Below are positions 1 through 53,499 of a DNA stretch of 64,000 nt, in pieces. The notes under the pieces are model-generated. The model was not told the origin of the DNA. It was given only the letters and a program-made list of their open reading frames with translations, and ran no database searches. A program made the position numbers and the translations under genes. The stretch covers positions 32,001-96,000 of the IMG/VR virus record IMGVR_UViG_3300030419_003589. The stretch is one strand, 5' to 3'. Source of the stretch: a virus. The number at the start of each line of letters is the position of its first letter. Within the stretch, counting starts at the first letter, position 1.

Positions 1-1
1 T

Positions 2-13719: not shown

Positions 13720-13739
13720 AGGACTAGGAGAACAAAAAT

Positions 13740-16700: not shown

Positions 16701-18344
16701 GGAACTAGGGCAAGATGTAATCACCGTCGAATAAAAGATCAAGGAGGAGCCGGGGGCGTAGGTGTTATAGGGGCTGTCTGCACAGTTGGGGCGGTTCAAA
16801 GAGTATCTTTTACGACGATGAACAAACTTGGAATGCAGTCGTACTTTTTGAATAAACATTGGTATCCTTCTTGGGGGGGTAATAACTTTGACAGATTCGA
16901 TAAGTTTGGAACTACGGATCTATCCGTTCGTGTATATCAGGCACACGAGCGAGAGAACTTAATATATGACTCAAGGTTCTTTGCTGTTTACCATTTCAAC
17001 GACGGAACATCTCTTCCGAATGATTTCCTGAACCGGAAAGCGAATATAACACTCGTTTATAAAGACATTTACGAGGGTGGCATTGACACCATCGAGGCTG
17101 ACACTGATAATGACGCTCAAGCAGACTGCTTAGTAGGCGTGAAGAGAAGCAAGGTAGACACTCAGTTAGCATCATACGTGGAGTATGAGGACGATTGCAA
17201 GATTAAAGAAGAGTGGGTCATAGCTAAAGCTAAAGACCCTCCAGAACTTTATCATCCGACCAGATATCCATATCCGGCAGAGGCGACCACGCTCCCAGTT
17301 GGAGAGGGGGATCAGGTGTATAAAAACCAAATTTACCGCAGGGGCGATGATAAGTGGGGCAGGTTAATTCCTAAAGAGCATTGGATAATTGATCCAAGAA
17401 GAAGAGGAAAATGTTTGCCCTATAACCATTATAGAGAAGTTTGCCAACTACCGCATTTCTTCTTTGGCCAAGTTATTCTAAAGGGTCCGTTTGTAAAAAT
17501 TGGAAAGGTTTGGGCTAGATCTACTGAGATGGATAATTATGCATCCCTTACAGGTCAATTTGCTTCCGTGCCCGCTCTAGAGACAAAAGATGCGAATGGA
17601 GATCTTGTGCGTAACGATCAAGATATTAGGGACGTTGACCTAGTTTTGACACAACTTGGGCAGGATTATAAGATAGGAGACAGGTTTAAGGTAGAAGGGT
17701 TTGATAACAGTGAGGTCACGGTGATGTCTACCGGCACTCAAGGATGTGTAAACGGCCTGTTTATCAAATTGAAAACAGTTAATGGTAAAATTCCACACAC
17801 GGAATATGTAAAATATGGAACGGATGTTGACCCCAGCGTTCTGATAGACGCAGACTTAGAGTTTAAAGATGTTGTAGATTGTAAGGATTTCAGCGTAGAA
17901 AAAGTGGGGAAAATCACTAGAATTACCAATGGCGCTGCCAAACTTAAGCCCTATAATAAATTCTCTGTTAGCGGAAAGGGTTTTAGTGCATTCGTAACTG
18001 GGGCAACGGTCAGAAATCTATTAATGACAGACCATAAGCCCAAAATAGCCTCAATTAACGATTATTCACAGCTTTCTTTACCGTCCAATAAGGACGACGG
18101 GGGAACAGCGGGGCAAGACTTCCTATTTGGATTTATTCAGTCATCGAATGATTTCATTGCGATGGATGGGGGTGAAAGGATAGTTGACGTTGATGTTGAG
18201 ACAAATCCGTCACCAAGCGGGCTATACGACTGTTTTTTCCATTTTCATAACGATATTTCTCATACTATCTTAAATAATGACACAATTGGTGCTCTTGGGA
18301 ACGTAGGAGACCAGTATGTACAGCTAGAAATCAATCCTGTTTAA
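13740..18344 (+). CDS. Giant hypothetical protein, probable virion component (1534 aa)
   Basis: AGGAG RBS upstream. GQDYKIGDRFKVEG...VTVMSTGTQGCVNGLFI resembles the GxGYxxGD repeat of phage tail/baseplate proteins. Confidence 0.5.
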   Translation: MDNLDRYKADYHEFTNNSEWLKKFNLSTYTTGVLYRWWNSCWMDQGDPNANDVASRGHIGQSVSVRDLYAYELGVDDFASTNQRDAIGSVMAPTNDPSMAVFMNGNRARRGLLQSGIQFEAWRFEDNNKGRFELIEKLVDWTWQDPREEVLWGPFDWDDLQIDEFTQKIVVSPTKDGEEPTLVDAEYEGCDYNAGILGSPYQSLSEIITMNNWVRLKEISMPKVEDWPEKDKARREFIDDIKTSRSGCLSIMCSIAVDVTPDRLELCPITEYFTTNLYLRDTIKPENKAFFALPELKKVGIPKDSTGRPYGSKKDGDLSEPDETKEGDKVVADIDMHFNEYTGTYQSGSKTILAKITKTVGPADGAEDLESLKGSDNEETLDGLNDNYLQMGTGEAMPITMQNGNPYQWTPNYALPADCREGNTDKATVIVYNPDPEKSFSVGKTVLLHEVDGVWMPVEFGSGEDTTFTPQPIFKGRWEIQQFATCMGNFFTTARAPEHPWNSNCNTVDYPFGRRSQLTPIQAEQKFHRKYYYSNDLNNGGPDDPTKYAGKFGGAADDWVSEAITNTAASYCRQVTGFDYLEHTLGGTRSPTKRSIDRTTFGRFANGDMPSEAGGYSPENTVYFGTLFPDGWTATGMDNEEESGPQTLTYEARPYHMKTWGVENEFFYDQGDTDNPVIPAAKNVLPQTLQADSDATAYQDAWKKIIGEDEQGKLRDDKKVGMFYNYADHQSTVLEQMPADYALQCSPSGTYGRPILSLRKLIELDNTTIPANLQEAVQKGFYTKLLDKTVAGTRTLDDIKNLQTLARKNSFYSWLYREPQDGFPEDEAGETTVEYHKSAMDWRPVRASRIQFRPLMYELYANDHGRQIPTSYFPTPYYNRDYIYNYLSFKMDDGLPAWSTQSRLREDKLRDGKLNRIYMENNDSIGSHPVGFGGYGFSPNDGCDTVSRQFYRANGLPFNNDFQQAVLNKYHPTERVHYDLYRCNYAGGTRARCNHRRIKDQGGAGGVGVIGAVCTVGAVQRVSFTTMNKLGMQSYFLNKHWYPSWGGNNFDRFDKFGTTDLSVRVYQAHERENLIYDSRFFAVYHFNDGTSLPNDFLNRKANITLVYKDIYEGGIDTIEADTDNDAQADCLVGVKRSKVDTQLASYVEYEDDCKIKEEWVIAKAKDPPELYHPTRYPYPAEATTLPVGEGDQVYKNQIYRRGDDKWGRLIPKEHWIIDPRRRGKCLPYNHYREVCQLPHFFFGQVILKGPFVKIGKVWARSTEMDNYASLTGQFASVPALETKDANGDLVRNDQDIRDVDLVLTQLGQDYKIGDRFKVEGFDNSEVTVMSTGTQGCVNGLFIKLKTVNGKIPHTEYVKYGTDVDPSVLIDADLEFKDVVDCKDFSVEKVGKITRITNGAAKLKPYNKFSVSGKGFSAFVTGATVRNLLMTDHKPKIASINDYSQLSLPSNKDDGGTAGQDFLFGFIQSSNDFIAMDGGERIVDVDVETNPSPSGLYDCFFHFHNDISHTILNNDTIGALGNVGDQYVQLEINPV

Positions 18345-39473: not shown

Positions 39474-41042
39474 TTAAATTTCATGAATTTTATCGACAAT
39501 AAATGAGTTGTCTTTATCTACATCTCCACACAGCATGAGGTTGTTGCCCTCATATAAAATATACTGGTATTTGTCTCTAGCATCGGGGAAAACAATGACA
39601 CTGTCTAGTGAGCAGGTCATATCCTCAATAGTGAGAAACGACATGGTTCTGCCCTTCTGCTTGCTGCCCTTCTTGTTGATCTTATGGTTAGCCACCCTCT
39701 GAATATTGGCTACAATACATATGTCTTTGCCGTGTTTTCCGTCCATAATTTCCTTACAGGTTGTGTTGGCTATTGAGGTATCAACAGCGTCAACCTTGGA
39801 GTAAGACACTGGACACCCCAGCATTTTGGTCTCCTGCTCAATAATCCAAGCCGGATCATCATCCAGACTGTAAGGGGGATTCTCCAAAAGCTCTATTTCA
39901 TTCTCAACAATCTGACTGCGATTCACATTACTGCACCCGCCGCCCAGTTTTTTGGTGGGGGCAAGATCTCTGAAGCATTCCTCTAATTTTTCCCATTTAT
40001 TTATTGGGTATTTTGAGGTGACCCATTTGACCTCAGTCTTGGTAAGCTCCCTGAAGATCAGGTATTCATACAATGCTTGATTTCTAGTTACTCCCGTTGA
40101 CTTGGTAGAGAAGAAGCCTATAGAGGCCAAGGCTTTGAAGGCCGTGGAATTAATCTTAGGGGATAAATAGATCAGAATGTCCATCCATGTAAAATTCTCT
40201 GCTTCTTTACCTAGTTCTTCCGTTGCTTCAGAAATAGCACTGACCACTTTGTCGCCCGTAACTCCGGTTAGCCCCTTTACGTCTTTGACTCCAAATTGTA
40301 CGTTATCACCAAAGATAGCAAATTTTTTAGAGAAATTACTTAGTTTAGGAACCTTTACTTCAATATTAAATAGTTTAGCTTCGTTTACTAGCTCATAGAT
40401 TTCTTGGTGCGGGTCTTGCTTCTCATTTGCGTAGTATAGGTACGACAAGAAGAACTCTTTGGTGTTGTTGGCCTTATAGTACGCAGACCAGTAAGAGTCC
40501 AAAGCATAGGCTACGGCGTGGGACTTATTAAATGAATATCTAGATGATTTTTCAATCCACCCAAAGATTTCCTTGGCCGTTTCTTCATCAACAATACCCT
40601 GCTGCTTGCATCCATCGACAAACTCGCCACGTATTTTAGCCATAAGGTCTGCCTTCTTTTTACCAATGGCCTTTCTGAGATTGTCGGCTTCTTGCTCATT
40701 AAATCCTGCCAACTTCACGGCAATAAGCATTGCCTGCTCTTGGTAGACAAGAACTCCATACGTAGGCTTAAGTATTGTCTCTAGAGATGGATGTAGATAA
40801 GATACCTCCTCCTTATTATGCTTCCTGTCAACAAATCGCTGAGTCATTGACTTTCCATCAATAACGGCTTTCAGACATCCGGGCCTAATTAAAGCAATTA
40901 ATGCCGCAAGTTCCTCTAGGTTTTTAGGTGCTAATCTCTTTGACCATGCTCTACCGAGATTGCTCTCAAGCTGAAAGACCCCCTTAGTTAGGCCTTCCTC
41001 ATAGAGGCTCCAAGATTTTTTATCATTTCTATCTATAATCAT
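39474..41042 (-). CDS. dnaE: DNA polymerase III alpha, C-terminal half (fingers/HhH/OB)
   Basis: GVFQLES, ALIALIRPG, TYGVLVYQEQ, LRKAIGKKK, RYSFNKSHAVAY, FGVKDVKG, MSFLTIED. Confidence 0.93.
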   Translation of the reverse strand: MIIDRNDKKSWSLYEEGLTKGVFQLESNLGRAWSKRLAPKNLEELAALIALIRPGCLKAVIDGKSMTQRFVDRKHNKEEVSYLHPSLETILKPTYGVLVYQEQAMLIAVKLAGFNEQEADNLRKAIGKKKADLMAKIRGEFVDGCKQQGIVDEETAKEIFGWIEKSSRYSFNKSHAVAYALDSYWSAYYKANNTKEFFLSYLYYANEKQDPHQEIYELVNEAKLFNIEVKVPKLSNFSKKFAIFGDNVQFGVKDVKGLTGVTGDKVVSAISEATEELGKEAENFTWMDILIYLSPKINSTAFKALASIGFFSTKSTGVTRNQALYEYLIFRELTKTEVKWVTSKYPINKWEKLEECFRDLAPTKKLGGGCSNVNRSQIVENEIELLENPPYSLDDDPAWIIEQETKMLGCPVSYSKVDAVDTSIANTTCKEIMDGKHGKDICIVANIQRVANHKINKKGSKQKGRTMSFLTIEDMTCSLDSVIVFPDARDKYQYILYEGNNLMLCGDVDKDNSFIVDKIHEI

Positions 41043-41063: not shown

Positions 41064-41738
41064 CTAAACAAAAAGCTTACCGTCTGCGAAAGCTTTTTCA
41101 AATTTCATATTTCTGTAAACTGCTCTTCTGGATTTTTGTAGCTTGATAAAGATATTTGCGGTATCCTTAACGTCCTGAAGTGCGTCGTGAGCATTTTCAC
41201 TGGATAGCCCCATTCGTTCTCTTAGACTATCCATACTGATAGACTTAACATTAGGATCTCCCTCAGTCCAAAGCCAAACGTCGTCCATAACGTCAATTTT
41301 ATAAATTTGGTGGAACAGTTTTTGTTGTTGCCGCTTGTCATCCCAAGGGCCGTATTCCTTGCACAGTCGATTCACGATATGCATATCATACCCAATGATG
41401 TTAAAACCGGCGGGAATAGGTGCAAAATAAGACGTACCCTTCCAGTTATATTTATCAACAAAGGCGCAGAACTTTTTCCAGACACCTTTAGGTAGGGGCG
41501 CTCTTGCTAGTTGCGACCTAGTTTGCCCAGTGACTTTCAGTGCCCCCTCTTCAACAGGATCAACACCTGCTGCTATAGCCTTTTCGTCATCCAGTATTGG
41601 ACGCATCATGCTATTGAACTCACCTTTAAGCCTAAAATTTCTACCATCTAAGGCGATGGCTGCGATTTGTGTAGGTTGGCATCTCATCGGGTTACGACCA
41701 CCCGTTTCAAAGTCAAACACTATAATGTCTCTATTCAT
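41064..41738 (-). CDS. DEDDh 3'-5' exonuclease (DnaQ/epsilon-like)
   Basis: VFDFETGG (ExoI), GFNIIGYD (ExoII), HDALQD (ExoIII). Confidence 0.88.
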   Translation of the reverse strand: MNRDIIVFDFETGGRNPMRCQPTQIAAIALDGRNFRLKGEFNSMMRPILDDEKAIAAGVDPVEEGALKVTGQTRSQLARAPLPKGVWKKFCAFVDKYNWKGTSYFAPIPAGFNIIGYDMHIVNRLCKEYGPWDDKRQQQKLFHQIYKIDVMDDVWLWTEGDPNVKSISMDSLRERMGLSSENAHDALQDVKDTANIFIKLQKSRRAVYRNMKFEKAFADGKLFV

Positions 41739-43359
41739 GAATAGTCTCCTTGATTAACATCAATTTGTCTAGTAGATTGATGCCTAGTACGTCAAATTTA
41801 ACATGTCCTAAAGATTCAAGATCTGCCATTTCTAGACCAGCGATTTTCTCTTTTCCACTTCTTTGGTTTACCATAGGGCAAACTGTGTAAAGCGGTTCTG
41901 CTGAAATAACTACGCCAGCGGCGTGTTTGCCTTGAGTTTTAAAAGTCCCTTCAATGTCTATTGCCTGCTGAAAGAATTCCGCATAGTCTCCTTGCAGTTG
42001 TCCCTTATCATTTACAAAACAGTAGTCACGAAGGTCGTCTGCGTTATTAATTAATGCCCACCTAATGATAGACCTATCTTCCTCGTCCATCTCTGCTAGT
42101 TGGTCAGAGATAGCCGCCTCATCTGGGATGTATTTAGTTATTTCATTCATCTCACCAAAGCCGCAAGCGCTGTTGACCCTGAGAACTTCTTTGATAGCAC
42201 TCCTACCCTGTAGTCTCCCAAACGTGAGCATTTGGCTAACATTGTCGCTTCCGTATGTCTCTTTAAGATAAGAAATGATTTCATCACGTTTACCGCCCGG
42301 AACATCAATATCAATATCTGGGAGGGAGATGTGATCCTCTGTATTACGCCCAGCGTTATAGAATCTTTCAAACAATAAATCAAATTCGATGGGGTCAATC
42401 TGCGTGATCCCTATGAGGTAGGAAATCAGACATCCGGCGGCAGATCCTCTACCCGGACCAACAAGCCAACCCTGCCCCTTGCAATACTCGATAATGTCCC
42501 ATACGATTAAGAAGTAACCGAATAGATTGGCTTCTTCTATGACCTGATACTCCTTTCTGAATCTATCTCCGTACTCCTTTTTCTTGTCCTCGTCAGTAAT
42601 TGTTTCGCCAAGGAGTTTTGTCCAACCTTCTCTGGCCAAATCTCTTAGATAGTCCTTTTGAGAATTCCCTTTAGGGGTTTGGAAGTCAGGCAGCATTGGC
42701 TGGTTCAGTATGTTATAGTTCTCGCACTTATCGTATATTTCTTTAAAAAGATTCGGTTGGGGATCTTCTATTAGCAGCTCTGTGGCTCCGATTTTATCTC
42801 TAACAAAGAAGTCATTCGACTCAAAGAAAATTTGATTTTCAACCTCTTGCCCCTTATTTAGTGCCCTACTGATTTTTGGCATAGTGGTCTTCATCTTTGA
42901 GCAGAGTATAATCCTATGAAGAACTGCGTCCTCTTTCTCTGTATAGTAGCTTACATGAAGGGAATCGGTGTGTTCGTAAAAGTCGTCGCCCTTAATTGGC
43001 GAAAGAGATTCGTTCTTGGCGACAGATATAAGATTGCGACCGTTGCCGAGCTTCACTATTAGGGAGTGGTCTGGCTTTTGTTCTTCAGATATTGAGGATA
43101 CTATTTGTATCAACTCCAGCCAGCCATCTTTATTCTTAGCGAACAGCGTGAAGTCATCGAACGCGCATCCTATAATTGGCTTTATATCCTGTGCTAGGCA
43201 GGCTTTGTAGAACGCAACTGCTCCGGATACGCTTTTATAATCAGCTATACCGCAGGCTCTATAATGATTGTCAGAGCATTTTTTCGCTAGCTGCTTCGGT
43301 TTAGAGAAACCTTTTTGCAGAGAGTAGTGTGTATAATTACACAGTGGAAACCAGTCCAT
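41731..43359 (-). CDS. dnaE: DNA polymerase III alpha, N-terminal half (PHP + catalytic palm)
   Basis: THYSL, IKPIIG, GPGRGSAAG, LLFERF, SLPDIDID, GKHAAGVVI, KFDVLG. Confidence 0.93.
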   Translation of the reverse strand: MDWFPLCNYTHYSLQKGFSKPKQLAKKCSDNHYRACGIADYKSVSGAVAFYKACLAQDIKPIIGCAFDDFTLFAKNKDGWLELIQIVSSISEEQKPDHSLIVKLGNGRNLISVAKNESLSPIKGDDFYEHTDSLHVSYYTEKEDAVLHRIILCSKMKTTMPKISRALNKGQEVENQIFFESNDFFVRDKIGATELLIEDPQPNLFKEIYDKCENYNILNQPMLPDFQTPKGNSQKDYLRDLAREGWTKLLGETITDEDKKKEYGDRFRKEYQVIEEANLFGYFLIVWDIIEYCKGQGWLVGPGRGSAAGCLISYLIGITQIDPIEFDLLFERFYNAGRNTEDHISLPDIDIDVPGGKRDEIISYLKETYGSDNVSQMLTFGRLQGRSAIKEVLRVNSACGFGEMNEITKYIPDEAAISDQLAEMDEEDRSIIRWALINNADDLRDYCFVNDKGQLQGDYAEFFQQAIDIEGTFKTQGKHAAGVVISAEPLYTVCPMVNQRSGKEKIAGLEMADLESLGHVKFDVLGINLLDKLMLIKETIHE

Positions 43360-43391
43360 AGTAATCCTTCAATATTAAGTTAGAGACTATT

Positions 43392-43742
43392 CTACCTAAG
43401 TCTCGAATCAATCTTTAATGTGGACTTTATCCCGCCACGAGGGTTAAAACCCGCTTCTACAACCAACGTATATGGGGTGAAGACCTCCATAATGTGATCA
43501 TAAAGGGTATTAATAAATCTCTCATATGAGAGTCTGTTGTTACGAAAACTATAAATATACTTCTTAAACGACTTGAGTTCAATCACAGAGTCACTGGGTA
43601 CCATAGTTAGGGTAACAAATCCAAAGTCTGGCTGATCTTTGTCTCCCAAGAACGTAAGCTCGGGACAGTCGATGGTAATTTCATAAACATCCTTTGAAGG
43701 ATTCTTGATTCCTTGCAGGATCGACTTGTCGCCCCACACCAT
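43392..43742 (-). CDS. queF: QueF-family T-fold protein lacking the catalytic Cys
   Basis: CPELTFLGDKDQPDF, IELKSFKKYIYSFRN, SYE, FNPRGGI align with unimodular QueF (CPEFTSLCPxTGQPDF, ESKSLKLYLFSFRN, PRGGI). Confidence 0.8.
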   Translation of the reverse strand: MVWGDKSILQGIKNPSKDVYEITIDCPELTFLGDKDQPDFGFVTLTMVPSDSVIELKSFKKYIYSFRNNRLSYERFINTLYDHIMEVFTPYTLVVEAGFNPRGGIKSTLKIDSRLR

Positions 43743-43791
43743 ATTGTATACCTCTTCTCAATACCTCGTTCAATAATACCCGATTTGTATT

Positions 43792-43820
43792 ATTATAGTC
43801 CAGCGAGGAGTATTCTCCAA
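43792..43820 (-). promoter_or_regulatory. Putative sigma70-like promoter for the queF-like/dnaE block
   Basis: On the - strand TTGGAG, 17-nt spacer, TATAAT, in an 86-nt intergenic gap. Confidence 0.6.
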
Positions 43821-43828
43821 GGTGTTTT

Positions 43829-44497
43829 CTAGAAGTTTCTTAGTTCGGGGAACAATTCATACCTAATATTTTCCCATACCGCTCCAGAGATTATCATAGA
43901 AGCCTCATTGTCTGATGGATAATGCACTCCTTGGAGCATCCTAGCCGCCCCAGCTGAGGAAACTTTAGAGAAAAATTCAGATGAATACTCTGGATATTTT
44001 GCTGATAATATATAAGCCCCAAGAGCAGCGTACGCCGTGTGACCAGAAGGGTAGGCTGGCGTATGGTGACTGCTGGTTTGAGTGACTTTTATCTTAATGT
44101 CATACATGGGTGCCAACTGATAGGGTCTGGGTCTATTAAATTTATACTTTAAATTTTTAATGACCGGAGACATGATATCCCAAGCCTTGCTGAATATATC
44201 GTAGGGGAATTCCAGCCCATGTTTTTTCAAAGTTTTGTGATAAAGAAGATTTGGGTTGGCGTCTACCATCTTAATTAAGTCTAACTGAGAGTTGCTTAGA
44301 CTTCTTGTTAGTTCAGATATGTAAACTAACTCCTTCTTGGTGGTTTCGCTGCCATTGGTTGGCGGGTCGGCTAGAACGTTGTCCCAACCGATAGTAACCG
44401 CCTGCGGAACTTCAAAGGTCTTCTTTTCGTCGCTATATCTTAGCTTGTCTATCTTTTCTAGAATAACCTTATTTAAATCGTCTATATACTTATTCAT
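43829..44497 (-). CDS. PAP2-superfamily phosphatase/haloperoxidase-fold protein
   Basis: KYKFNRPRP (C1), YPSGH (C2), RMLQGVHYPSD (C3). Confidence 0.88.
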   Translation of the reverse strand: MNKYIDDLNKVILEKIDKLRYSDEKKTFEVPQAVTIGWDNVLADPPTNGSETTKKELVYISELTRSLSNSQLDLIKMVDANPNLLYHKTLKKHGLEFPYDIFSKAWDIMSPVIKNLKYKFNRPRPYQLAPMYDIKIKVTQTSSHHTPAYPSGHTAYAALGAYILSAKYPEYSSEFFSKVSSAGAARMLQGVHYPSDNEASMIISGAVWENIRYELFPELRNF

Positions 44498-44792
44498 TAT
44501 TGACCATCATGGGTTTTTTAATTGTTTTTGTTTTATCGTCCATTTGTTCGCATATTGGGCACATCTGCTGCGCTCCCGGCGGATGAAGTCCGATTTGATG
44601 ATGTATCATTAGAATCCCTTTAAATAGCTGAGTGTCTCTCATCATCGTCTGTTCTTGTAGGATTTTCATCTCTGGATAGGGAGCAACAACAACCGTGGGT
44701 TTTTTGAGTTCCCTAAACATGTACGCATTAAAGGCCAAGTTACATATACTAAGAGCGAACAGCACATATGCTGCACATTTAAAAAATTTCAT
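44490..44792 (-). CDS. Small membrane-anchored/secreted protein with His/Cys motif
   Basis: Hydrophobic N-terminus AAYVLFALSICNLAFNAY; HHQIGLH...CPIC. Confidence 0.65.
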   Translation of the reverse strand: MKFFKCAAYVLFALSICNLAFNAYMFRELKKPTVVVAPYPEMKILQEQTMMRDTQLFKGILMIHHQIGLHPPGAQQMCPICEQMDDKTKTIKKPMMVNNE

Positions 44793-44803
44793 TTTGACAC
44801 CTA

Positions 44804-46018
44804 TTAGGAAAATAGTTCAGTGATTACTTTTCCTGAATTAGCTATTTTCATAGGTCGCCCACTATTACTTGTGTAAGTGGTTTGTAGCGAAATGCCAAGT
44901 GCCTTACAGATTGAGGCCATGACATCTTGGGAGGAATAAGGCTCTGTCTCCACTCTGGTACCATCTTTGTTTGTTGCACCAATGGCGATACCACCATTCA
45001 TGCCAGCACCACCAACGACAACGCTCCAACTTCGCGCCCAATGGTCACGACCGGCGTTCCCGTTGATACGTGGAGTTCGACTAAATTCGCCCATCCATAT
45101 GATAGCTGTATCCTCCAATAACCCTCTTTGCTCTAAATCCTCTACTAATGCGCTCATACCTTGATCTAGCATGGGCAACTTTGTGTCTCTTAAAGTCGGG
45201 AAGATGTTCTGATGGTTATCCCATCCACCAAGGCCTACTTCAATAAATGGAACACCAACTTCTACTAAGCGTCTAGCCATTAGACACCCTTTACCGAAGC
45301 TGTTGTCTCCATATCTTTCCTTTACATTTTCTGGTTCGTTTGCTACCTTCATCGCATCCATCTCTTTGCTAGTGAGAACGTTGAAGGTTTTTCTTAACAC
45401 CTTTTGGTGCTCTTTGGCTAATGATCCCCTATTACTGTTTATAAAATTGGTTTCCATCATATCTAGAACATGTGCCCTTTGATAAAATCTTTGATCTATT
45501 TTCATATCTAGATTTCTAATCCTGCCGTCGCTATTTACAGCGAAGGGATTATATTGAGCACCTAAAAATCCAGCACCCTGACTTGGGCCATTCACGGAAA
45601 CGAATTGCGGAATTAAAAGATCTTGTTTCTCTAGCTGTTTAGAAATAACTGAGCCATAGCTCGGATGAACCATGTTTGGGTTGGGGACATATCCAGTGTG
45701 CATATAATAGCGTCCACGCATGTGGTCAGCTTCACGAGTACTCATACTGCGAATGATTGCCATATTATGCATCTGTTTTGCCATCAACGGCATGTGTTCG
45801 CAAATCTCTACATCCCCAGTTGTGCTCACGGGCTTAAACGGGCCTCCAGTCGGCGCGTCTGGTTTTAAGTCCCAGATATCCATAGTAGAAGGGCCGCCTC
45901 CCATCCACAAGAGAATGGCCGACTTCCCATTTTTCTTCAATTCTTGCTGGTTGGCTTTGAGTGTTTGCGTCAAAGCAGCAATTCCAGCTAGTGATGATAA
46001 AAACTCTCTTCTTTTCAT
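44804..46018 (-). CDS. DUF1501-family protein with Tat signal (copy 1)
   Basis: MKRREFL...LKA signal; LWMGGGPSTMDIWDLKP, GGWDNH, WMGEFSRTPRIN..AGRDHW. Confidence 0.9.
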   Translation of the reverse strand: MKRREFLSSLAGIAALTQTLKANQQELKKNGKSAILLWMGGGPSTMDIWDLKPDAPTGGPFKPVSTTGDVEICEHMPLMAKQMHNMAIIRSMSTREADHMRGRYYMHTGYVPNPNMVHPSYGSVISKQLEKQDLLIPQFVSVNGPSQGAGFLGAQYNPFAVNSDGRIRNLDMKIDQRFYQRAHVLDMMETNFINSNRGSLAKEHQKVLRKTFNVLTSKEMDAMKVANEPENVKERYGDNSFGKGCLMARRLVEVGVPFIEVGLGGWDNHQNIFPTLRDTKLPMLDQGMSALVEDLEQRGLLEDTAIIWMGEFSRTPRINGNAGRDHWARSWSVVVGGAGMNGGIAIGATNKDGTRVETEPYSSQDVMASICKALGISLQTTYTSNSGRPMKIANSGKVITELFS

Positions 46019-46022
46019 AATA

Positions 46023-46772
46023 TTACCAAGCCTTACAAGACCAGTAGCGAGCTTTCCAGCGAGGGCCGGGATTGTCGCAGTTATGTCTTGCCCTGAAACT
46101 TTTCCTTCTTTTTGGATTATCTTTTTTGATCTTCATGTTGGGATCGCCAAAGTTTACTTTAACAACATTGCCTTTATCGTTCTTGACGTATACCGATCTT
46201 TTCTTAGGCCCATCTGGAGTTAAAAATGGCTTTCCAAGCTTTACTTTCCTACCTTGATATTCTGCTGCCCGAACTGGTATTAGGACTCGGCCATTTTTCC
46301 TGTATACACCCTGACGTTTATACGTATAAACCTCTCCTGTCTTAGGATCTTCATACTTATACTCGTTTTGTGCTTTCTTCCAAGATTCTGGATCTGGACG
46401 ATCAGGATCTCCGCGTTTTGCGGGTTTATACTTCTTGCCCTCCCTTTCCTTTTTCTTGCGAATGTTTTCCCATAGTCCGGGCTTTGCTTCAGACACATCC
46501 CATTCTTCTGATTCTTCTCCCCAGTCTTCGTATTCAGCCTCAGCGGGTATATAGAAATTATCTTCTGTCAGCTCTTCTTCAGAGCCGTAATTTTCAAAAT
46601 AAGATCTAAAGTCAGCGGCCTCTACAATGCTAGAATACTCCGTTGCTTTGCTCATACAAACCGCAGTTCTTTGCTTCTGATCTGGGTATTCGGACTTCAT
46701 CTTGTCACTACTCATACAGCGCGACATAAAGTCCTTTGGTTTCTCTTTCCTATCTTTAGATGGCAAAGGCAT
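46023..46772 (-). CDS. Modular basic phage protein
   Basis: Modules DFMSRCM..YPDQKQRTAVC, KPGLWENIRKK and AEYQGRKVKLGKPF...VNFGDPNM..RRKSFRARHNC..ARYWSCKAW, which I recognise from hypothetical proteins of large aquatic phages. Confidence 0.7.
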   Translation of the reverse strand: MPLPSKDRKEKPKDFMSRCMSSDKMKSEYPDQKQRTAVCMSKATEYSSIVEAADFRSYFENYGSEEELTEDNFYIPAEAEYEDWGEESEEWDVSEAKPGLWENIRKKKEREGKKYKPAKRGDPDRPDPESWKKAQNEYKYEDPKTGEVYTYKRQGVYRKNGRVLIPVRAAEYQGRKVKLGKPFLTPDGPKKRSVYVKNDKGNVVKVNFGDPNMKIKKDNPKRRKSFRARHNCDNPGPRWKARYWSCKAW

Positions 46773-46781
46773 AAATTTCTC

Positions 46782-47252
46782 CTAAAATCTGAAGTGAAAA
46801 AATAATCCGCTAAACGGTGTAGGGTACACCGGTACGGGTTGTGGCTGTATAATTACAGGAGGGTGATATACTCTGTAAAAGCCATGTATTGGATGATACC
46901 TAGTTTCTACGGAAGGGTAATAAAATGGGTGAACATATGGTCTACCAATTATTATGCTTCCATGTCTATAGTTGTGGCTAGGTCTGACCTGTTGCTGTTG
47001 CTGCTGAGGTTTTTGCCACTCTTGTTTTCCAAACCCCGCAGGTCTTTGTATAGGTCTTCCAAAGCCTTGAGGTAATTGTGGCTTCACGGCGGCTGGTGGC
47101 CTCGCAGTAGTTGGGGGTGCGACGACCCTTCGCTGTTGGGATGACTGAGGCCTCGCCGTAGTCGGAGGTTTAATAACCTTGCGTTCAGGCTGTTCCGCAT
47201 TTAAAGAAAGTGGCACAAATAATAAACATAGTAGTGATGCTAAATATTTCAT
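46782..47252 (-). CDS. Secreted Pro/Gln/Tyr-rich low-complexity protein
   Basis: Sec-type signal MKYLASLLCLLFVPLSLNA; PPTTARP x2; Q run; ends SGLFFHFRF. TAATG-coupled to DUF1501 copy 2. Confidence 0.75.
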   Translation of the reverse strand: MKYLASLLCLLFVPLSLNAEQPERKVIKPPTTARPQSSQQRRVVAPPTTARPPAAVKPQLPQGFGRPIQRPAGFGKQEWQKPQQQQQQVRPSHNYRHGSIIIGRPYVHPFYYPSVETRYHPIHGFYRVYHPPVIIQPQPVPVYPTPFSGLFFHFRF

Positions 47253-48535
47253 TATATCAACTCCTTAATTGGTTCTCTGTGATCCAGAAGATACTGAGGT
47301 CTTCCGGTTCTATCTAATAAAGTGGTTGACATAGTATCAATACCCAACCCTCTATACATTGTTGCGCAAATTTCTTGAATATGCACAGGTCTGGTTTCTG
47401 GAACCTCACCAAGCCTATTGGTTTCTCCGATGGTCTGGCCATGATTAAAGCCTCCTCCTGCGAGTAAAGCACAAGAAACTTGAGGCCAATGGTCACGACC
47501 ACCCTTTGGATTAATCTTAGGCGTTCTACCAAACTCTCCCCATACTACCACGAGCGTATCGTCTAGCATACCACGTTGATCGAGATCTCGAACAAGCGCG
47601 GACACGCATTGATCCAACTTTGCTCCATGATCTCTAACTAAATCAAAATTAGAACCGTGACTGTCCCATCGACCGTAAGAAAGTGTGACAGACCTAGCTC
47701 CAGCTTCGACAAGTCGTCTTGCCATCAGTACATGCTCATTTACAGTAGGCGCTCCATCGTATTGAAATTTGAATGGTTTGCCGTCTCCGTACATCTCTTT
47801 AATTTTTGGATCTTCTTTTGATAAGTCCAAAGCATCGACTAAAGAGCTTGATGTCAATACCCCAAAAGCTTCTTCCGTAAATGTATCTACACCAACAGCA
47901 CTATCAATAGTCTTGTTTAATGTTGCAAATCCATTCAGTAGGTCTTTTCTATTTTTAAACCTTTCAACCTGCATGTTAAGCTTAAGGTCTTTCATCATCT
48001 CACCATTTGGTTTAAATGGCTTATGTGTATCCCCTAGATATCCGGCTCCACCAGCTTCTGACCAAGGGCCGTGCTGTGTGGGCTCTGCTAGTCCTACGGC
48101 AACCGGTACGGCAGGATCAACTGAGCCTAAAATCTTAGAAGCACACGCTCCGATAGCGGGATAGCTAGTGCCTGAAACCATATCCTTACGGCTCCAGCCA
48201 GTGACACATTGGTGACCATCATGTGAGCCATCTGACCCCACTACCGAGCGAATTGCTGTAAACTTATCAAACATAGAAGCAATCTGTGGAAAACATTCAC
48301 CGATGTATACACCCGCCACGTTGGTCGAGATCGGCTTAAAAGGTCCACGAATTTCCGAAGGTGCTTCTGTTTTTATATCCCACATATCTTGATGTGGAGG
48401 GCCACCGCCCAAGAAAATATTAATTACTGCTTTATGTGACGTACCACTTTTCTCTTGAGCATAAAGAACCTGCGGCATAGAAAGGAGACCTAAGCCCCCT
48501 ACCGATAAGAAACTTCTACGTGATAAATTTAGCAT
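47252..48535 (-). CDS. DUF1501-family protein with Tat signal (copy 2)
   Basis: SRRSFL...LYA signal; IFLGGGPPHQDMWDIK.EAPSEIRGPF, GRWDSH, VWGEFGRTPKIN..GGRDHWP. Confidence 0.9.
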   Translation of the reverse strand: MLNLSRRSFLSVGGLGLLSMPQVLYAQEKSGTSHKAVINIFLGGGPPHQDMWDIKTEAPSEIRGPFKPISTNVAGVYIGECFPQIASMFDKFTAIRSVVGSDGSHDGHQCVTGWSRKDMVSGTSYPAIGACASKILGSVDPAVPVAVGLAEPTQHGPWSEAGGAGYLGDTHKPFKPNGEMMKDLKLNMQVERFKNRKDLLNGFATLNKTIDSAVGVDTFTEEAFGVLTSSSLVDALDLSKEDPKIKEMYGDGKPFKFQYDGAPTVNEHVLMARRLVEAGARSVTLSYGRWDSHGSNFDLVRDHGAKLDQCVSALVRDLDQRGMLDDTLVVVWGEFGRTPKINPKGGRDHWPQVSCALLAGGGFNHGQTIGETNRLGEVPETRPVHIQEICATMYRGLGIDTMSTTLLDRTGRPQYLLDHREPIKELI

Positions 48536-48552
48536 TTTTGCTTACTCCTCTT

Positions 48553-48954
48553 CTAGTGTCTTCTTCTTTTACAGTTGGGGCACATTCCGCCATTTTTAAC
48601 ATGTCGGTGCGGGCCTCTTCTGTGGTGAGGATGTTTTCCTCTTGGTTCATAATTAGGCTTTCCTTCTGGTCTGCCATGATTGGGTCTACCTTGCGGTTTG
48701 CCCTGCGGTCTACCTTGGGGTCTACCTTGGGGTCTCCCGTGATGAGGCCTGTGTTCCATTTCCCGTGGGCCACTCTTGGGTTTGCAGCAGCCGTCCCTGC
48801 ATCTGCATCCTCTTCTACAGTCACATCTGCATCGGGGGTCACATTTGTCACAGTCTCTGCAAGATGGCCTTTCTCCTCTTGGATGGTCAGCAAGCAAGCT
48901 AGTTGGTGCTACCACGCAAGAAGCGATGGCCATTAACATATTTCTTCTATTCAT
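48553..48954 (-). CDS. Putative Tat-exported metallothionein-like Cys/His/Arg-rich protein
   Basis: MNRRNML...LLA leader; 10 Cys in 26 residues; G(R/K)P(Q/N/E) repeats; His-rich; C-terminal CPNC; GGGAG RBS. Confidence 0.65.
   Translation of the reverse strand: MNRRNMLMAIASCVVAPTSLLADHPRGERPSCRDCDKCDPRCRCDCRRGCRCRDGCCKPKSGPREMEHRPHHGRPQGRPQGRPQGKPQGRPNHGRPEGKPNYEPRGKHPHHRRGPHRHVKNGGMCPNCKRRRH
48679..48738. repeat. 12-nt coding tandem repeat (GRPQ/GKPQ)
   Basis: About five units of ttggggtctacc and variants. Confidence 0.8.
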
Positions 48955-48969
48955 AACATCTCCCTTTCG

Positions 48970-50226
48970 TTAGCTAATTAGTTCTTGAATAATCTTACCA
49001 CCATCAACGATTTCAATTGGACGATCACCGGGAGCCATTAGCTCTTTATCAGCAACAATGCCCAATCTGTTATAGATGGTAGCCGCCCAATCCTCTATGC
49101 TGACTGGGTCTTGGTCTGGCTCACTAGCGGTTGCATTTGATGTGCCATAAGTGAGACCTCTCTTGATTCCTCCACCCGCCATAATAGTACTAAATACCTT
49201 TGGCCAGTGATCTCTTCCTGCGCTGGCGTTGATTTTTGGAGTTCTACCAAACTCTGAGACAACGCAAACCAATGTGGAATCTAATAATCCGCGATCATCC
49301 AAGTCTTCGATAAGAGTTGCAAAGCCTTGATCGAAAGCCGGTAGCTGACTTTTCATGCCATTGGATATGTTATCGTGCATATCCCAGCCGCCGTAGGTGA
49401 GTGTTACGAATCTTGTTCCAAACTCTACTAGTCTGCGGGCCAGCAGCATCCTAGCTCCCGCAGTATTTCTTCCATATCTGTCTCTTAAGGCCGCTGGTTC
49501 TTTTTCTATATCAAATGCTTCTCTTGCATTTTGGTCTCCTATAAGGCTATATGCTCTTTGATAAAAAGAGTTAACGGCAGTCAAGGAGTCCGCATCTTCT
49601 TTCTTGTTAAACTCAGTGTTTACAATATCTAGAACACGCCGTCTTCTACTAAATCTTGCATCCTCCACCGGCACTTTTAAATCTCTAACCTGAAAGTTTT
49701 TACTGGCGGGATCGGAACCTAATCCGAATCCAGAGTATGAGCTGCTTAAATATCCAGTGCCTGCAAATTCATTAGGTTGGTTTGGGATGCAGACATACGG
49801 AGGGAGGTTTTTACGTGGCCCAAACTCGTGCGCAACCACTGAACCCATAGATGGGTATTGAAGGGCTGGGCTAGGTCTGTAACCAGTAAACATATTGTGT
49901 GTGCCACGCTCATGGGCTGCCTCTCCGTGTGTCAGACTGCGAATGATAGCAATTTTATCTGTTATCTTCGCTGTTTTACCCAATAGTTCTCCGAGGCGAA
50001 TCCCCGGAACATTGGTTTCAATACTACCAAGTGGCCCACGATATTCTAGGGGAGCGAATGGCTTAGGATCAAATGTCTCCTGATGAGCCATTCCCCCCGG
50101 AAGGTAAATAAAGATGATGCTCTTAGCTGGCCCCTCCTTGCTATCATAATGTTTTTGATCTGCTCTAGCGAGAGATGCACCAAAACTACCTAAGATTCCA
50201 GCTTGTAAAAAAGACCTTCTTTTCAT
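48970..50226 (-). CDS. DUF1501-family protein with Tat signal (copy 3)
   Basis: MKRRSFL...ARA signal; IYLPGGMAHQETFDPKP.APLEYRGP, GGWDMH, VSEFGRTPKIN..AGRDHWP. Confidence 0.9.
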   Translation of the reverse strand: MKRRSFLQAGILGSFGASLARADQKHYDSKEGPAKSIIFIYLPGGMAHQETFDPKPFAPLEYRGPLGSIETNVPGIRLGELLGKTAKITDKIAIIRSLTHGEAAHERGTHNMFTGYRPSPALQYPSMGSVVAHEFGPRKNLPPYVCIPNQPNEFAGTGYLSSSYSGFGLGSDPASKNFQVRDLKVPVEDARFSRRRRVLDIVNTEFNKKEDADSLTAVNSFYQRAYSLIGDQNAREAFDIEKEPAALRDRYGRNTAGARMLLARRLVEFGTRFVTLTYGGWDMHDNISNGMKSQLPAFDQGFATLIEDLDDRGLLDSTLVCVVSEFGRTPKINASAGRDHWPKVFSTIMAGGGIKRGLTYGTSNATASEPDQDPVSIEDWAATIYNRLGIVADKELMAPGDRPIEIVDGGKIIQELIS

Positions 50227-50241
50227 TACCTGTTCCTTATT

Positions 50242-50382
50242 CTAGAATAAAAACCTTGACCACCAACCTTGGGACGCGCCCAAGAAATAAATCCCAACTA
50301 AAGCTCCGCCAACGAGTGCGGCACGCCTAACTAGCCTATGCTTTCTAATAAAATTAGCAATCGGACCATCAAATAGTGGCAT
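50242..50382 (-). CDS. 46-aa single-TM peptide (below the ORF-track cutoff)
   Basis: MPLFDGPIANFIRKHRLVRRAALVGGALVGIYFLGASQGWWSRFLF, with a GGAGGT RBS 4 nt upstream; fills the gap between DUF1501 copies 4 and 3. Confidence 0.75.
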   Translation of the reverse strand: MPLFDGPIANFIRKHRLVRRAALVGGALVGIYFLGASQGWWSRFLF

Positions 50383-50399
50383 AGTTACCTCCATTAAAA

Positions 50400-51662
50400 T
50401 TAAAGAATTACTTTCGCTTCACCCTCCAACAAATATCTGGGACGACCAGACATGTCAGTACGTTGAATTGCTCCGTCAATTCCAAAATGGTCAAACAGCG
50501 TTGCTTGTAGGTCGAGTGGCCCCACTGGGTTTTCTATGGGGCTATACGATCTGTCTGCTTCACCAATCGTTCTTCCTGATTGATAATTACCACCGGCCAT
50601 CATCATTGGCGTAATTGCAGGCCAATGGTCACGTCCAGCGTTTGCGTTTATTTTAGTTCTACCAAATTCTCCCGTAACCACCAAGAGAACTTTCTCATTC
50701 AAACCGCGATCCCACAGATCTTGCAGAAATCCGCTTATGGCTTTGTCAATTGGTGCAACCCTTTTCTTTAGTGCGTCTGAGATGTTGCTATGCATATCCC
50801 ACCCACCATAGTGTAAGGTAACAAATTTTGTTCCATGCTCTACAAGTCTTCTTGCTAAGAGCATCTGTTCACCAATATCGTTAGCTTTTTCAGATCCGTA
50901 AAGAGCTTTGGTTGCTTCCGACTCATTGTCTGTAGCAAATGCGTCTTTAGCAGATCCAAGAATCACATCATAAGCCTGCCCTTTATAGAATCCAACTGAT
51001 TTAGCGCTTTTACCAGAGATGTCTTTGGCTGCTGAACCTAGTTCGCTCAACAATGATTTTCTAGTATTAAATCTGTCAAGCTGTATCCTTGGTGTTAGAT
51101 TGTCTTTATTTGATGGGTCGAATGGCTTATACGCCCCTCCCAACCAAGCGCCTTCGTCACCTTCAATTTTACCCTGCTTGACATATGAAGGGACTCCATT
51201 TTGAGGATGGTTAGTACCATAAACGGCAGAGATTAGAGAGCCAAAAGAGGGGTATTTTGCCGTAGATGTGGTAGTTCTTTCTGGATTGTAGTGTCCAGTC
51301 ATCATAAAGTGCGTCCCTTGCCTGTGGGAAGAGTCTTTATGACTAAAAGAGTTTACAACATTTAATTTTGAAGTATGTTTAGAGAGTTCATGCCAATCTT
51401 CCCCTAAAGTAATGTTTGTTTTAGGGTCGTGCTTTGCACCATTTACTGGCTTCCACTCTGTTGGAACAGTATCTTTTGGGGCATGGAAAGTTTCAAATTG
51501 TGTTGGGCCTCCTCCAAGCCATACCCAAACAACTGATTTATCTCCATAACTTTGTAGTGTATTTGCAGCGAAAGCGGCGTCAGACAGACCAACGGCAGTC
51601 ATTCCCGCTCCAATAGATCCAATCCTAAGAAAATCCCTTCTGTTAAAGTAAAAATCTAACAA
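50400..51662 (-). CDS. DUF1501-family protein with Tat signal (copy 4, most divergent)
   Basis: TTG start with GGAG 8 nt upstream; NRRDFL...AFA signal; VWLGGGPTQFETF, GGWDMH, VTGEFGRTKIN.NAGRDHWP. Confidence 0.88.
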   Translation of the reverse strand: MLDFYFNRRDFLRIGSIGAGMTAVGLSDAAFAANTLQSYGDKSVVWVWLGGGPTQFETFHAPKDTVPTEWKPVNGAKHDPKTNITLGEDWHELSKHTSKLNVVNSFSHKDSSHRQGTHFMMTGHYNPERTTTSTAKYPSFGSLISAVYGTNHPQNGVPSYVKQGKIEGDEGAWLGGAYKPFDPSNKDNLTPRIQLDRFNTRKSLLSELGSAAKDISGKSAKSVGFYKGQAYDVILGSAKDAFATDNESEATKALYGSEKANDIGEQMLLARRLVEHGTKFVTLHYGGWDMHSNISDALKKRVAPIDKAISGFLQDLWDRGLNEKVLLVVTGEFGRTKINANAGRDHWPAITPMMMAGGNYQSGRTIGEADRSYSPIENPVGPLDLQATLFDHFGIDGAIQRTDMSGRPRYLLEGEAKVIL

Positions 51663-51680
51663 TTTTTCATCTCCATATGC

Positions 51681-52718
51681 TTACCCCGGAGCTTCATAAA
51701 AACCTATATTAAAGCCCGGACGTGTGCATTCTTCTAAAGTTTTTTCCATACCGTGTTTTTTTAAGTGCTTCTCTATATATATACACATTTTCTCGTCTGT
51801 GCCTTCCCAATTGTTTTTACAAAAATGACACAGATACTTACATTTCCAATGAGTTCTAGTAGAATCTAGGAGTTGAGGGTTGTTATTTTGTCTAATTTCC
51901 TCTACCCTGTCTTTTAACATGCCTAAAAACCTAGCTTCATCACTCTTGTCAAACATAAGCGAAAATGGCCTTGGATCTGGATCTCCATCTTTGTCTTTAT
52001 AGAAGAAAATGCTCATAATCCTGTTTGGGAATTCTGGATATAACTTTGATATAGCATAGAAATATAAGAGTAATTGAGCGTCATTCTCTAGTTTTTTGTA
52101 GTCCTTTACTTCGCCTGTAGCCCAGTCCATACGGCGGCCAGTCTTCCAGTCGATCACTTCTATAGTTTCATCGTCAATTTTAGTAACGAGGTCAATCGTG
52201 CCCTTAATGGCTAATTGTCCTTCAACCTTTTCCCCGTTTATTTCATATTCAAACTTTGCCCAATCTTCTTCTATTGGTATGTCAAAATGAGGCTCAGGGT
52301 GATGTATATTCCTATATCTAGGATCAAACTGCCCATCACCGTGTCTCAAAAAAGTCCATACCGTCTCAGTTATGTCCCTTCTGTCTTTTGGCCCAAACTT
52401 GTGTACTGAGTTCTTGGCGTAGCAGTCTATCGCTATTTCGCATAATTCATTTACAAAGTCATCTGTGTATAATTCATCCTTATGAATTCTTATTTTGCCA
52501 GCCGCATCATCCTCCACAACCAAGTAACGCTTCCTTGAGTTGTCTTGTTGAAATTTTTTGAGTCCAGCCAGTACCTCCATTACCTTGTGGGCCATAGTTC
52601 CCATGTCGGCCTTTTTGCCACTATCGGACTGATGGCCTAGAACATAGGTTATAAAGTATTGCATTTGGCAATACGCATAATTATTATAGCTTGAACTTCT
52701 TACATAAGTAACTAACAT
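51681..52718 (-). CDS. Cas4/AddB-like PD-(D/E)XK exonuclease with Fe-S Cys motif
   Basis: N-terminal YCQMQY Cys, KGTIDLV..EVIDWKTG, QLLLY, C-terminal CKYLCHFC. Confidence 0.82.
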   Translation of the reverse strand: MLVTYVRSSSYNNYAYCQMQYFITYVLGHQSDSGKKADMGTMAHKVMEVLAGLKKFQQDNSRKRYLVVEDDAAGKIRIHKDELYTDDFVNELCEIAIDCYAKNSVHKFGPKDRRDITETVWTFLRHGDGQFDPRYRNIHHPEPHFDIPIEEDWAKFEYEINGEKVEGQLAIKGTIDLVTKIDDETIEVIDWKTGRRMDWATGEVKDYKKLENDAQLLLYFYAISKLYPEFPNRIMSIFFYKDKDGDPDPRPFSLMFDKSDEARFLGMLKDRVEEIRQNNNPQLLDSTRTHWKCKYLCHFCKNNWEGTDEKMCIYIEKHLKKHGMEKTLEECTRPGFNIGFYEAPG

Positions 52719-52719
52719 A

Positions 52720-53499
52720 TTATTCCTTTAAGTGATGGTACATTTTCTTGACCTTCACTATCAGGGAATCAATACTTTCATTGCTATTTTCTATATACAG
52801 TGTGAAGGGATAATTATCTAATGCCGTCTCGCTTGAGTGGCTATCTTCTGAGATTTTTCTTGTTAAACGAATAACATGTCCTCCAGCAGATTGAATAGCA
52901 TCCGCTTCGTCGGGGAATCTAACATCGGCAATTATGGATAGCTGCGATTGCTCTCGTTTAATTTTCTTTATACAGGAGTTTACCCATATAGACTGATGAA
53001 TACCTCTACAGACATCCGTGCCAAAAAATTGCATAAATTCACGGGCGGTCATTGGGCCTTCTTTCCAGCCATGACTTGTTCTTGCGTCTGGTGGTAGTAT
53101 TTTCTTCATCATCGTAGAGTTTATTGCTTTGGGCATCTTTTCCCAAAGAAGGTGATCCTGAAGCCGGTTCTTCTGCTCGTCGGTTCCCCATACGCACTCT
53201 GCGGGTATGTCGAATAGCTCTGAGCATATATGCTTTAAGCTGTCTGCGAAGCTGTATAGCTTAACATGGGGCCACATGTTGTGGTCTGCATACTCAACAA
53301 ATGAAGGGTCTTTTCTGGTTATATCAAATTCCCCCCAACCCTCTGCCCCAGACGAATCTTCTGTCAAGATCATCAATTCGCCGTTACGACCAAGGTTCCA
53401 ATCTTTTACTAACTCTCTGTCCTTAAGAATTACGCCGTGAAGTATATTGGCGACTGTATTTTTACCGGCCTGTTTACGCCCCGAAATTCCTAGTATCAT
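52720..53499 (-). CDS. Deoxynucleoside monophosphate kinase
   Basis: GISGRKQAGKNT P-loop, SFADSLK, REFMQFFGTD, ADVRFPDE, HSSE. Confidence 0.85.
   Translation of the reverse strand: MILGISGRKQAGKNTVANILHGVILKDRELVKDWNLGRNGELMILTEDSSGAEGWGEFDITRKDPSFVEYADHNMWPHVKLYSFADSLKHICSELFDIPAECVWGTDEQKNRLQDHLLWEKMPKAINSTMMKKILPPDARTSHGWKEGPMTAREFMQFFGTDVCRGIHQSIWVNSCIKKIKREQSQLSIIADVRFPDEADAIQSAGGHVIRLTRKISEDSHSSETALDNYPFTLYIENSNESIDSLIVKVKKMYHHLKE

Follow-up and report, generated by a model that had tools for sequence, protein, structure and literature searches.

A cassette of four DUF1501 genes in a large uncultured marine tailed phage appears to have been captured from planctomycete hosts, and its products may work, after export, together with partner proteins that the host itself encodes. 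The cassette lies in a stretch of 64,000 nucleotides (here the window), which makes up bases 32001–96000 of a single 122,431-bp contig of 42% GC, listed in IMG/VR (IMGVR_UViG_3300030419_003589) as a linear virus and estimated to be 73% complete. Our account as a whole, in which captured DUF1501 catalytic subunits would be exported through the twin-arginine translocation (Tat) system and act with host partners, most likely in phosphoester chemistry, has in our estimate a probability of roughly 0.42. The four genes, which we call A to D, are as follows (aa, amino acids; E, E-value of the match to the DUF1501 profile PF07394).

44804–46018, minus strand: DUF1501 A, 404 aa; E 3.3e-105; leader MKRREFLSSL...LKA
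47252–48535, minus strand: DUF1501 B, 427 aa; E 2.8e-83; leader LSRRSFLSVG...LYA
48970–50226, minus strand: DUF1501 C, 418 aa; E 1.1e-111; leader MKRRSFLQAG...ARA
50400–51662, minus strand: DUF1501 D, 420 aa, TTG start; E 2.9e-66; leader FNRRDFLRIG...AFA

The DUF1501 cassette and its phage setting

An earlier note made from the letters alone (the sequence-only reading) had proposed four DUF1501 paralogues within ~7 kb, each with a Tat-type leader and a common set of candidate metal-binding or catalytic motifs, and all three proposals hold. The four products match PF07394 over its full length (from position 1–2 to 386–390 of 390) at 225–374 bits against a cut-off of 27, with E from 3e-66 to 1e-111, and a profile search of the entire contig returned exactly these four genes. 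Each leader combines RR(E/S/D)FL with a hydrophobic region and then an AxA-like site (LKA, LYA, ARA or AFA), which is the pattern of a Tat substrate. The RRxF motif is retained by every phage orthologue while the remainder of the leader drifts, and TatC is encoded by candidate hosts and not by the phage. The His of ADH/GSH/AAH/SSH, WDxH, EF(G/S)RT and GRDHW are found in all four copies, and six residues (H105, D282, H284, R328, R338 and H340 in the numbering of copy C) are invariant in a diverse family alignment of 90 sequences that includes A–D. Pairwise identity among the four is 31–35%, indicating that they are old paralogues and do not stem from a recent tandem duplication. In one phage sub-clade (loci L016–L021), the Tat leader of the C orthologue nearly equals that of the neighbouring A (MKRREFLTSTAG...), which suggests that leaders were exchanged, or genes converted, between paralogues.

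The ratio of non-synonymous to synonymous change (omega, pairwise Nei-Gojobori) among phage orthologues is 0.030 for A, 0.034 for B, 0.044 for C and 0.056 for D, so that all four lie at 0.03–0.06, indicative of strong purifying selection. Compared with the window, a distant phage clade has PhoH, RecA-like and DnaB proteins that are just 41–55% identical, against 79–83% for A, 93–96% for B, 76–78% for C and 78–86% for D. Because synonymous sites are saturated in this comparison (proportion of synonymous differences, pS, 0.67–0.9), the likeness of the DUF1501 proteins across clades reflects constraint and not recent transfer. Three or four enzymes are thus kept under stronger constraint than phage replication proteins, which argues that specific members are important during infection.

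A copy C query against IMG/VR yielded at least 100 confirmed contigs, and 80 loci were fetched and compared. The cassette order D-C-(B)-A recurs in most of these loci (DCBA in 13, DCA in 19, DCB in 4 and DC in 16), many of which are truncated by contig ends; copy B is found in only some of the related phages. The cassette occupies at least three sites in these relatives, always on the same strand and always in the DNA-metabolism module: between the nuclease and DnaE, as in the window, between ribonucleotide reductase and PhoH, or beside homologues of two other early genes. A 166,833-bp relative estimated to be 100% complete (G006) is syntenic gene for gene with the window's contig and encodes, in a region absent from that contig, a large terminase (phrog_2, E 7e-23) along with further virion proteins; another relative carries direct terminal repeats.

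These observations bear on the explanation that host DNA was misjoined to a phage contig, or that the contig is a cellular island. DUF1501 genes are typical of Planctomycetota, and virion hallmark genes are barely recognisable on the window's contig, where the recognisable virion matches are tail-fibre, tail-spike and virion-protein only and where Pfam and PHROGs recognise no capsid, portal or giant virion proteins. Against an artefact stand identical junctions and the same gene order across dozens of independent IMG/VR assemblies, near-identical pieces of cassette and flank in metagenome runs of marine and estuary origin that belong to separate studies, the GC content at third codon positions (GC3) of A–D, which at 0.33–0.41 equals that of the phage backbone, and the terminase and terminal repeats of the relatives. 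Since junctions and order recur in independent assemblies and GC3 matches the phage, a chimeric host insert is excluded for practical purposes, and we regard the chance of an artefact as negligible; the block is phage-borne, as the sequence-only reading had held.

The read-level check used short Logan contigs, none of which covers the entire cassette. The stretch from DnaE to the start of A is bridged by one contig of X1, and the junction between D and the nuclease, by 10 letters only, in X18. A short contig from run X2 joins position 46024 to 51685, skipping 5660 bases from the end of A to the start of the nuclease gene; this joint is weak, its shorter side being 27 letters at a 90% likeness threshold, and a related strain that has just one DUF1501 gene may be its source.

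Cellular orthologues, host modules and the partner protein

In a scan of one genome per prokaryote species, orthologues of C at 57–77% identity were nearly all from Planctomycetota (Pirellulaceae, Planctomycetaceae and Gemmataceae), with a few from Verrucomicrobiota; family names here are those given on the sequence records, on which the host family rests. The carriers include Mb-sized contigs and the Limnoglobus roseus chromosome. Bins named Chitinophaga, Alcaligenaceae, Klebsiella and Kuenenia also hold planctomycete-type C orthologues (L085, L124, L138, L146, L151, L154, L101, L106 and L108); these contigs fall in planctomycete clades and are probably mis-binned or mislabelled. Five planctomycete genomes, with 75–106 candidate DUF1501 stretches each, contain exactly one orthologue of A per genome (65–75% identity, the next best being ~40%). 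The best cellular identity of B is 52–62%; D reaches 40% at best in the five genomes and gives no match at E<=1e-95 among 251 genomes sampled from the phylum. By sequence, then, A and C each have one specific Pirellulales gene as orthologue (65–77% identity).

Phylogenetic trees place the phage A and C sequences inside planctomycete clades. For C, the window's sequence, 18 further phage sequences and four marine planctomycete sequences form one clade (98 in the Shimodaira–Hasegawa-like approximate likelihood ratio test, SH-aLRT), which sits within a Pirellulaceae/Planctomycetaceae clade (SH-aLRT 99). For A, 13 phage sequences are monophyletic (95/99) and nested among Pirellulales. The closest cellular loci have a GC content of 45–50%, compared to 42% in the phage. 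Nesting in cellular clades, conservation within the phage lineage and purifying selection are together the features of host-derived phage auxiliary genes. The host is most likely a marine Pirellulales-type planctomycete, so that the planctomycete-like host suggested by the sequence-only reading is now backed by two gene trees. This provides a host assignment for a widespread group of large marine phages that has no cultured member among the phage records searched.

DUF1501 genes, together with PSCyt1, PSCyt2 and PSD1, have been described as a "conserved genetic module" of Planctomycetes, Verrucomicrobia and Lentisphaerae (Kamneva et al. 2012, PMC3542564). The host relatives of the phage genes stand in such surroundings. 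The host A-type gene lies immediately downstream of a gene for a ~560-aa PSCyt2/PSD1 (DUF1549/DUF1553) protein with an invariant CxxCH haem motif, and is followed by an extracytoplasmic function (ECF) sigma factor and a ~710-aa protein, an order seen in most of 12 genomes. The ~710-aa protein has an anti-sigma-like N-terminus and an outer part of the PSCyt2/PSD1 type, which is 36–44% identical to the ~560-aa protein used below as docking partner. This arrangement suggests that the host DUF1501/PSD pair feeds a sigma/anti-sigma signalling circuit. The four-gene unit can be seen at L186:6239-12070, in the host-like Pirellulaceae genome G005, and also at L216, L219–L222 and L224.

The host C-type gene is always followed by a gene for a conserved ~850-aa protein with a PPC (pre-peptidase C-terminal) domain and then by a PSCyt2/PSD1 gene, and the host B-type gene adjoins a PSCyt2/PSD1 gene in two of the three contexts examined. 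PPC is the sole recognisable part of the ~850-aa protein (L091:7339-9873, L089:7247-9769, L149:7297-9906 and L117:7452-9884), which may be a third component of the module.

The phage records searched contain no such partner. PSD1 (PF07587) has no match in six virus records, namely the window's contig and five relatives, three of them at least 90% complete; PSCyt2 (PF07583) has none on the window's contig, the sole record searched for it; and six-frame translations of the window's contig and G006 contain no PSD1-like C-terminal motif. Given that the host genes occur in pairs and that no partner was found in these phage records, the phage seems to have gathered enzyme halves from several host modules, leaving the partners behind.

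Fold, predicted docking and possible functions

An AlphaFold2 model of C is confident (predicted local distance difference test, pLDDT, 91.2; predicted template modelling score, pTM, 0.88), with a disordered leader. In a structural alignment of this model, nucleotide pyrophosphatase/phosphodiesterases (NPP phosphodiesterases) and PafA phosphatases rank above sulfatases, although the top Foldseek matches are sulfatases and the nearest folds include carbohydrate sulfatases. At the level of profiles, C and D match PF01663, the NPP family, weakly and under its gathering score, and matches to PDB sulfatases are marginal (E 0.025–0.6 over ~35 residues). None of A–D contains the formylglycine motif C/SxPxR, and none has a Pfam Sulfatase match at E<=0.01. 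The label "sulfatase-like", which the sequence-only reading had passed on from automatic annotation, is therefore a poor one, given the missing motif and given that the nearest solved folds are NPP phosphodiesterases.

We modelled a complex of mature phage A with the mature PSCyt2/PSD1 partner from the closest host-like genome. The interface score derived from predicted aligned errors (ipSAE) was 0.76 (0.75–0.82 between runs), compared to 0.00 for the best control, and this mark is reached by 58 of 80 solved complexes and by 2 of 110 mismatched pairs. Contacts overlap by at least 66% across the three runs, and the partner is modelled with a pLDDT of at least 86. Searched with a profile, the PDB sequences contained no solved DUF1501 structure, and because no solved structure of either family was found, the score is unlikely to reflect a memorised template. 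In the predicted interface, invariant residues of the PSD1 C-terminus (D545, W548, N552, S553, E555 and F556) face a helical insert of DUF1501 (residues 137–215). Phage A is thus predicted, from this model, to dock on the host's PSCyt2/PSD1 partner. The insert is the least similar part among A–D (24–26% identity), and such divergence would fit a situation in which each copy recognises its own partner.

From these data we propose the following sequence of events. A large uncultured marine tailed phage lineage would long ago have captured DUF1501 genes from Pirellulales-type hosts and assembled them as a D-C-(B)-A cassette within its early DNA-metabolism module. Early in infection the four proteins would be produced, fold with a metal site in the cytoplasm and be exported to the periplasm by the host Tat system, where the helical insert would dock on the host's own PSCyt2/PSD1 partners and the proteins would carry out metal-dependent hydrolysis as members of the alkaline-phosphatase superfamily. 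The likeliest chemistry would be NPP-type phosphoester cleavage, by which supply of a limiting nutrient, probably phosphate, would be sustained or raised for phage DNA synthesis, as with other auxiliary genes of host origin. Phosphoester chemistry is the most plausible choice because the fold is NPP-like, the neighbouring genes serve nucleotide metabolism, and phoH and PAP2 genes lie close by. Export, docking, substrate and benefit to the phage are what we infer from these observations, the docking from a structural model. A stronger version, possible but doubtful, is that DUF1501 and PSCyt2/PSD1 proteins form obligate periplasmic heterodimers through the invariant PSD1 C-terminal motif, and that the phage supplies just the catalytic halves of three or four selected modules, which seize resident partners during infection. 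The phage's pick among ~75–105 DUF1501 candidate stretches per host genome would in that case mark those that limit growth or nutrient supply, and would open a first route to experiments on a gene family that is among the largest unexplained ones of planctomycetes.

Several observations weigh against this account. There is no conserved Ser, Thr or Cys at the usual nucleophile position of the superfamily, where the invariant residue is a His. Between phage A and host A, conservation drops from 79% over the remaining protein to 58% at the predicted interface, and the docking is a single model in which the partner was taken from the closest sampled genome (A orthologue 75% identical), which is not that of the true host. 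D lacks a close counterpart in hosts and hence an identified partner. The window's contig is 73% complete, and the distant viral contigs L063, L064 and L067 hold a PSCyt/PSD gene near a C-like copy. These are IMG/VR contigs of 20–46 kb, on which the C-like DUF1501 is 57% identical and the PSCyt/PSD gene lies several kb off; they may be phages that carry the partner too, or cellular fragments.

Three other functions were weighed against the same evidence. The proteins could remodel the envelope or destroy receptors by stripping phosphate or sulfate from host surface glycans or envelope polymers, which would block superinfection, prevent progeny from re-adsorbing or aid release. In line with this, the proteins appear from their leaders to be envelope-targeted, the cassette encodes further small secreted or anchored proteins, carbohydrate sulfatases are among the nearest folds, and the genome contains glycosyltransferase and FkbM methyltransferase genes, so that glycans seem important to the phage. 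We nevertheless find this explanation unlikely: A and C are orthologous to conserved single-copy host genes in fixed partner modules, which fits a continuing host function better, the cassette lies among early nucleotide-metabolism genes and away from lysis and virion genes, and the formylglycine motif for sulfate esters is absent. Interference with host signalling, in which periplasmic phage A would bind the ~710-aa PSCyt2/PSD1 sensor and fix an envelope or nutrient response in its on or off state, draws on the host gene order with its ECF sigma factor, on the similarity of the sensor domain to the docking partner, and on the PSD1 residues of the docking model, which are invariant in both kinds of protein. 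A mere decoy, however, would have no need of strictly kept catalytic and metal motifs or of an omega of 0.03–0.06; moreover, the sigma link was examined for the A type only, and the anti-sigma role of the ~710-aa protein is deduced from its position and N-terminal sequence, with no family match. Such interference therefore strikes us as decidedly unlikely.

Sulfur scavenging or desulfation by sulfatase-like enzymes, as automatic annotation often suggests, is more improbable still. Planctomycetes are rich in sulfatases, and both the top Foldseek hits and the weak profile matches are sulfatases; but the four copies lack C/SxPxR, have no Pfam Sulfatase match at the threshold given above, and align better in structure with NPP phosphodiesterases and PafA.

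Neighbouring genes and comparison with known systems

Four small genes share the cassette with A–D, and genes of DNA and nucleotide metabolism flank it.

44490–44792, minus strand: small protein of 100 aa whose N-terminus forms a hydrophobic signal or anchor
46023–46772, minus strand: highly charged protein, 249 aa; C-terminal part resembles phrog_7595 (unknown function), E 3.5e-10
46782–47252, minus strand: Pro/Gln-rich protein, 156 aa, with a Sec-type signal peptide
48553–48954, minus strand: 133-aa product that opens with an RR leader and ends in a His-rich tail; contains a Cys-rich block and G(R/K)PQ repeats
43829–44497, minus strand: PAP2-family phosphatase-like protein, 222 aa; PF01569 E 3.2e-15; no obvious signal peptide
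51681–52718, minus strand: PD-(D/E)XK nuclease, upstream flank; PF12705 E 8e-21
43392–43742, minus strand: QueF-like protein, downstream flank; PF14489
41731–43359, minus strand: N-terminal half of a split DnaE (PHP and polymerase core); PF07733 and PF02811

Scans against Pfam, PHROGs and NCBIfam assigned none of the four small cassette proteins to a functional family, phrog_7595 being the sole match. The gene at 44490–44792 lies downstream of A in most related phages, that at 46023–46772 varies in position among related cassettes, and orthologues of the 46782–47252 product with the same leader occur in 8 related loci. The product of 48553–48954 has 10 Cys inside ~26 residues, no Pfam, PHROG or NCBIfam match and no tblastn homologue in the 80 related loci; its gene may be strain-specific, or its relatives may be hidden by low-complexity sequence. 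The PAP2-family gene adjoins the cassette in several related loci, an association that is frequent and not constant, and its product matches the NCBIfam acid phosphatase PhoC weakly, well under the cut-off.

The flanking families agree with the placement of the block by the sequence-only reading, between primase, kinase and nuclease genes on one side and queF and dnaE on the other. The nuclease at 51681–52718 heads a run of nuclease, deoxynucleoside monophosphate (dNMP) kinase and Toprim primase, and farther out in the same module are DnaB, RecA-like, PhoH, GMP-reductase/IMPDH-like and ribonucleotide reductase genes. A scan of 43300–52800 for promoters and terminators found sites no more numerous than in shuffled sequence. 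A second DnaE gene, from the finger domain onwards, lies at 39474–41042, with an RNase T-type exonuclease (41064–41738) between the two DnaE parts, and this split arrangement is kept in relatives.

Elsewhere on the contig there are four giant plus-strand open reading frames (ORFs) of 2476, 4326, 1688 and 1534 aa, at G000:C1:17774-38205 (partly window 1–6205; G000 is the record of the window's contig, and its coordinates follow whole-record numbering) and at window 8653–18344. All four are conserved in G006 at 30–67% identity; Pfam has no match for the 2476-, 1688- and 1534-aa ORFs, the three covered by the scan. A gene of the M19 membrane-dipeptidase family, 80% identical in G006, lies outside the window at G000:C1:113817-115058 (PF01244 E 1.5e-45), and two ORFs at G000 2939–4020 have no Pfam or NCBIfam match.

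The sequence-only reading had stated that no comparable phage system was described. This stands for the literature, where we found no paper describing such genes in searches on DUF1501 in phages and on planctomycete phages, for PHROGs v4, which has no DUF1501-matching family, and for the INPHARED phage records, which gave two weak partial DUF1501 matches and no real one; it does not stand for IMG/VR, with its at least 100 contigs of this kind.

Among the auxiliary metabolic genes of marine phages are some that serve nutrient uptake, for instance phoH, pstS and phoA-type phosphatases. The DUF1501 genes resemble these in being host-derived, under purifying selection and placed among early nucleotide-metabolism genes, and phoH lies in the same module of the window. 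They differ in belonging to an uncharacterised family and in forming a multi-paralogue set that seems to depend on host partners. Compared to NPP/ENPP enzymes (PF01663) and PafA-type alkaline phosphatases, the DUF1501 proteins are merely 12–16% identical, display no conserved Thr or Ser nucleophile, and have an extra helical insert (residues ~137–250) that the docking model uses for contact with the partner.

The phage genes and the module of Kamneva et al. (PMC3542564) agree in enzyme family, twin-arginine leader and conserved motifs, and phage A and C are direct orthologues of Pirellulales module genes at 65–77% identity; the phage, in contrast, has DUF1501 halves only, four different ones in one cassette, with no PSCyt2/PSD1 neighbour in the phage records searched. 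Uncharacterised since at least 2012 (PMC3542564), DUF1501 and its PSCyt/PSD partners rank with the most expanded protein families of Planctomycetota and Verrucomicrobiota. What distinguishes the phage system is the set of four paralogues, the partner gene not having been found in the phage records searched, together with one-to-one orthology to particular genes of host modules, a degree of conservation that is unusually high and a predicted docking, in the structural model, onto a partner encoded by the host. Orthology to single host genes and a predicted interface offer concrete targets for work on these families: the pairing of partners, the interface residues and the substrates.

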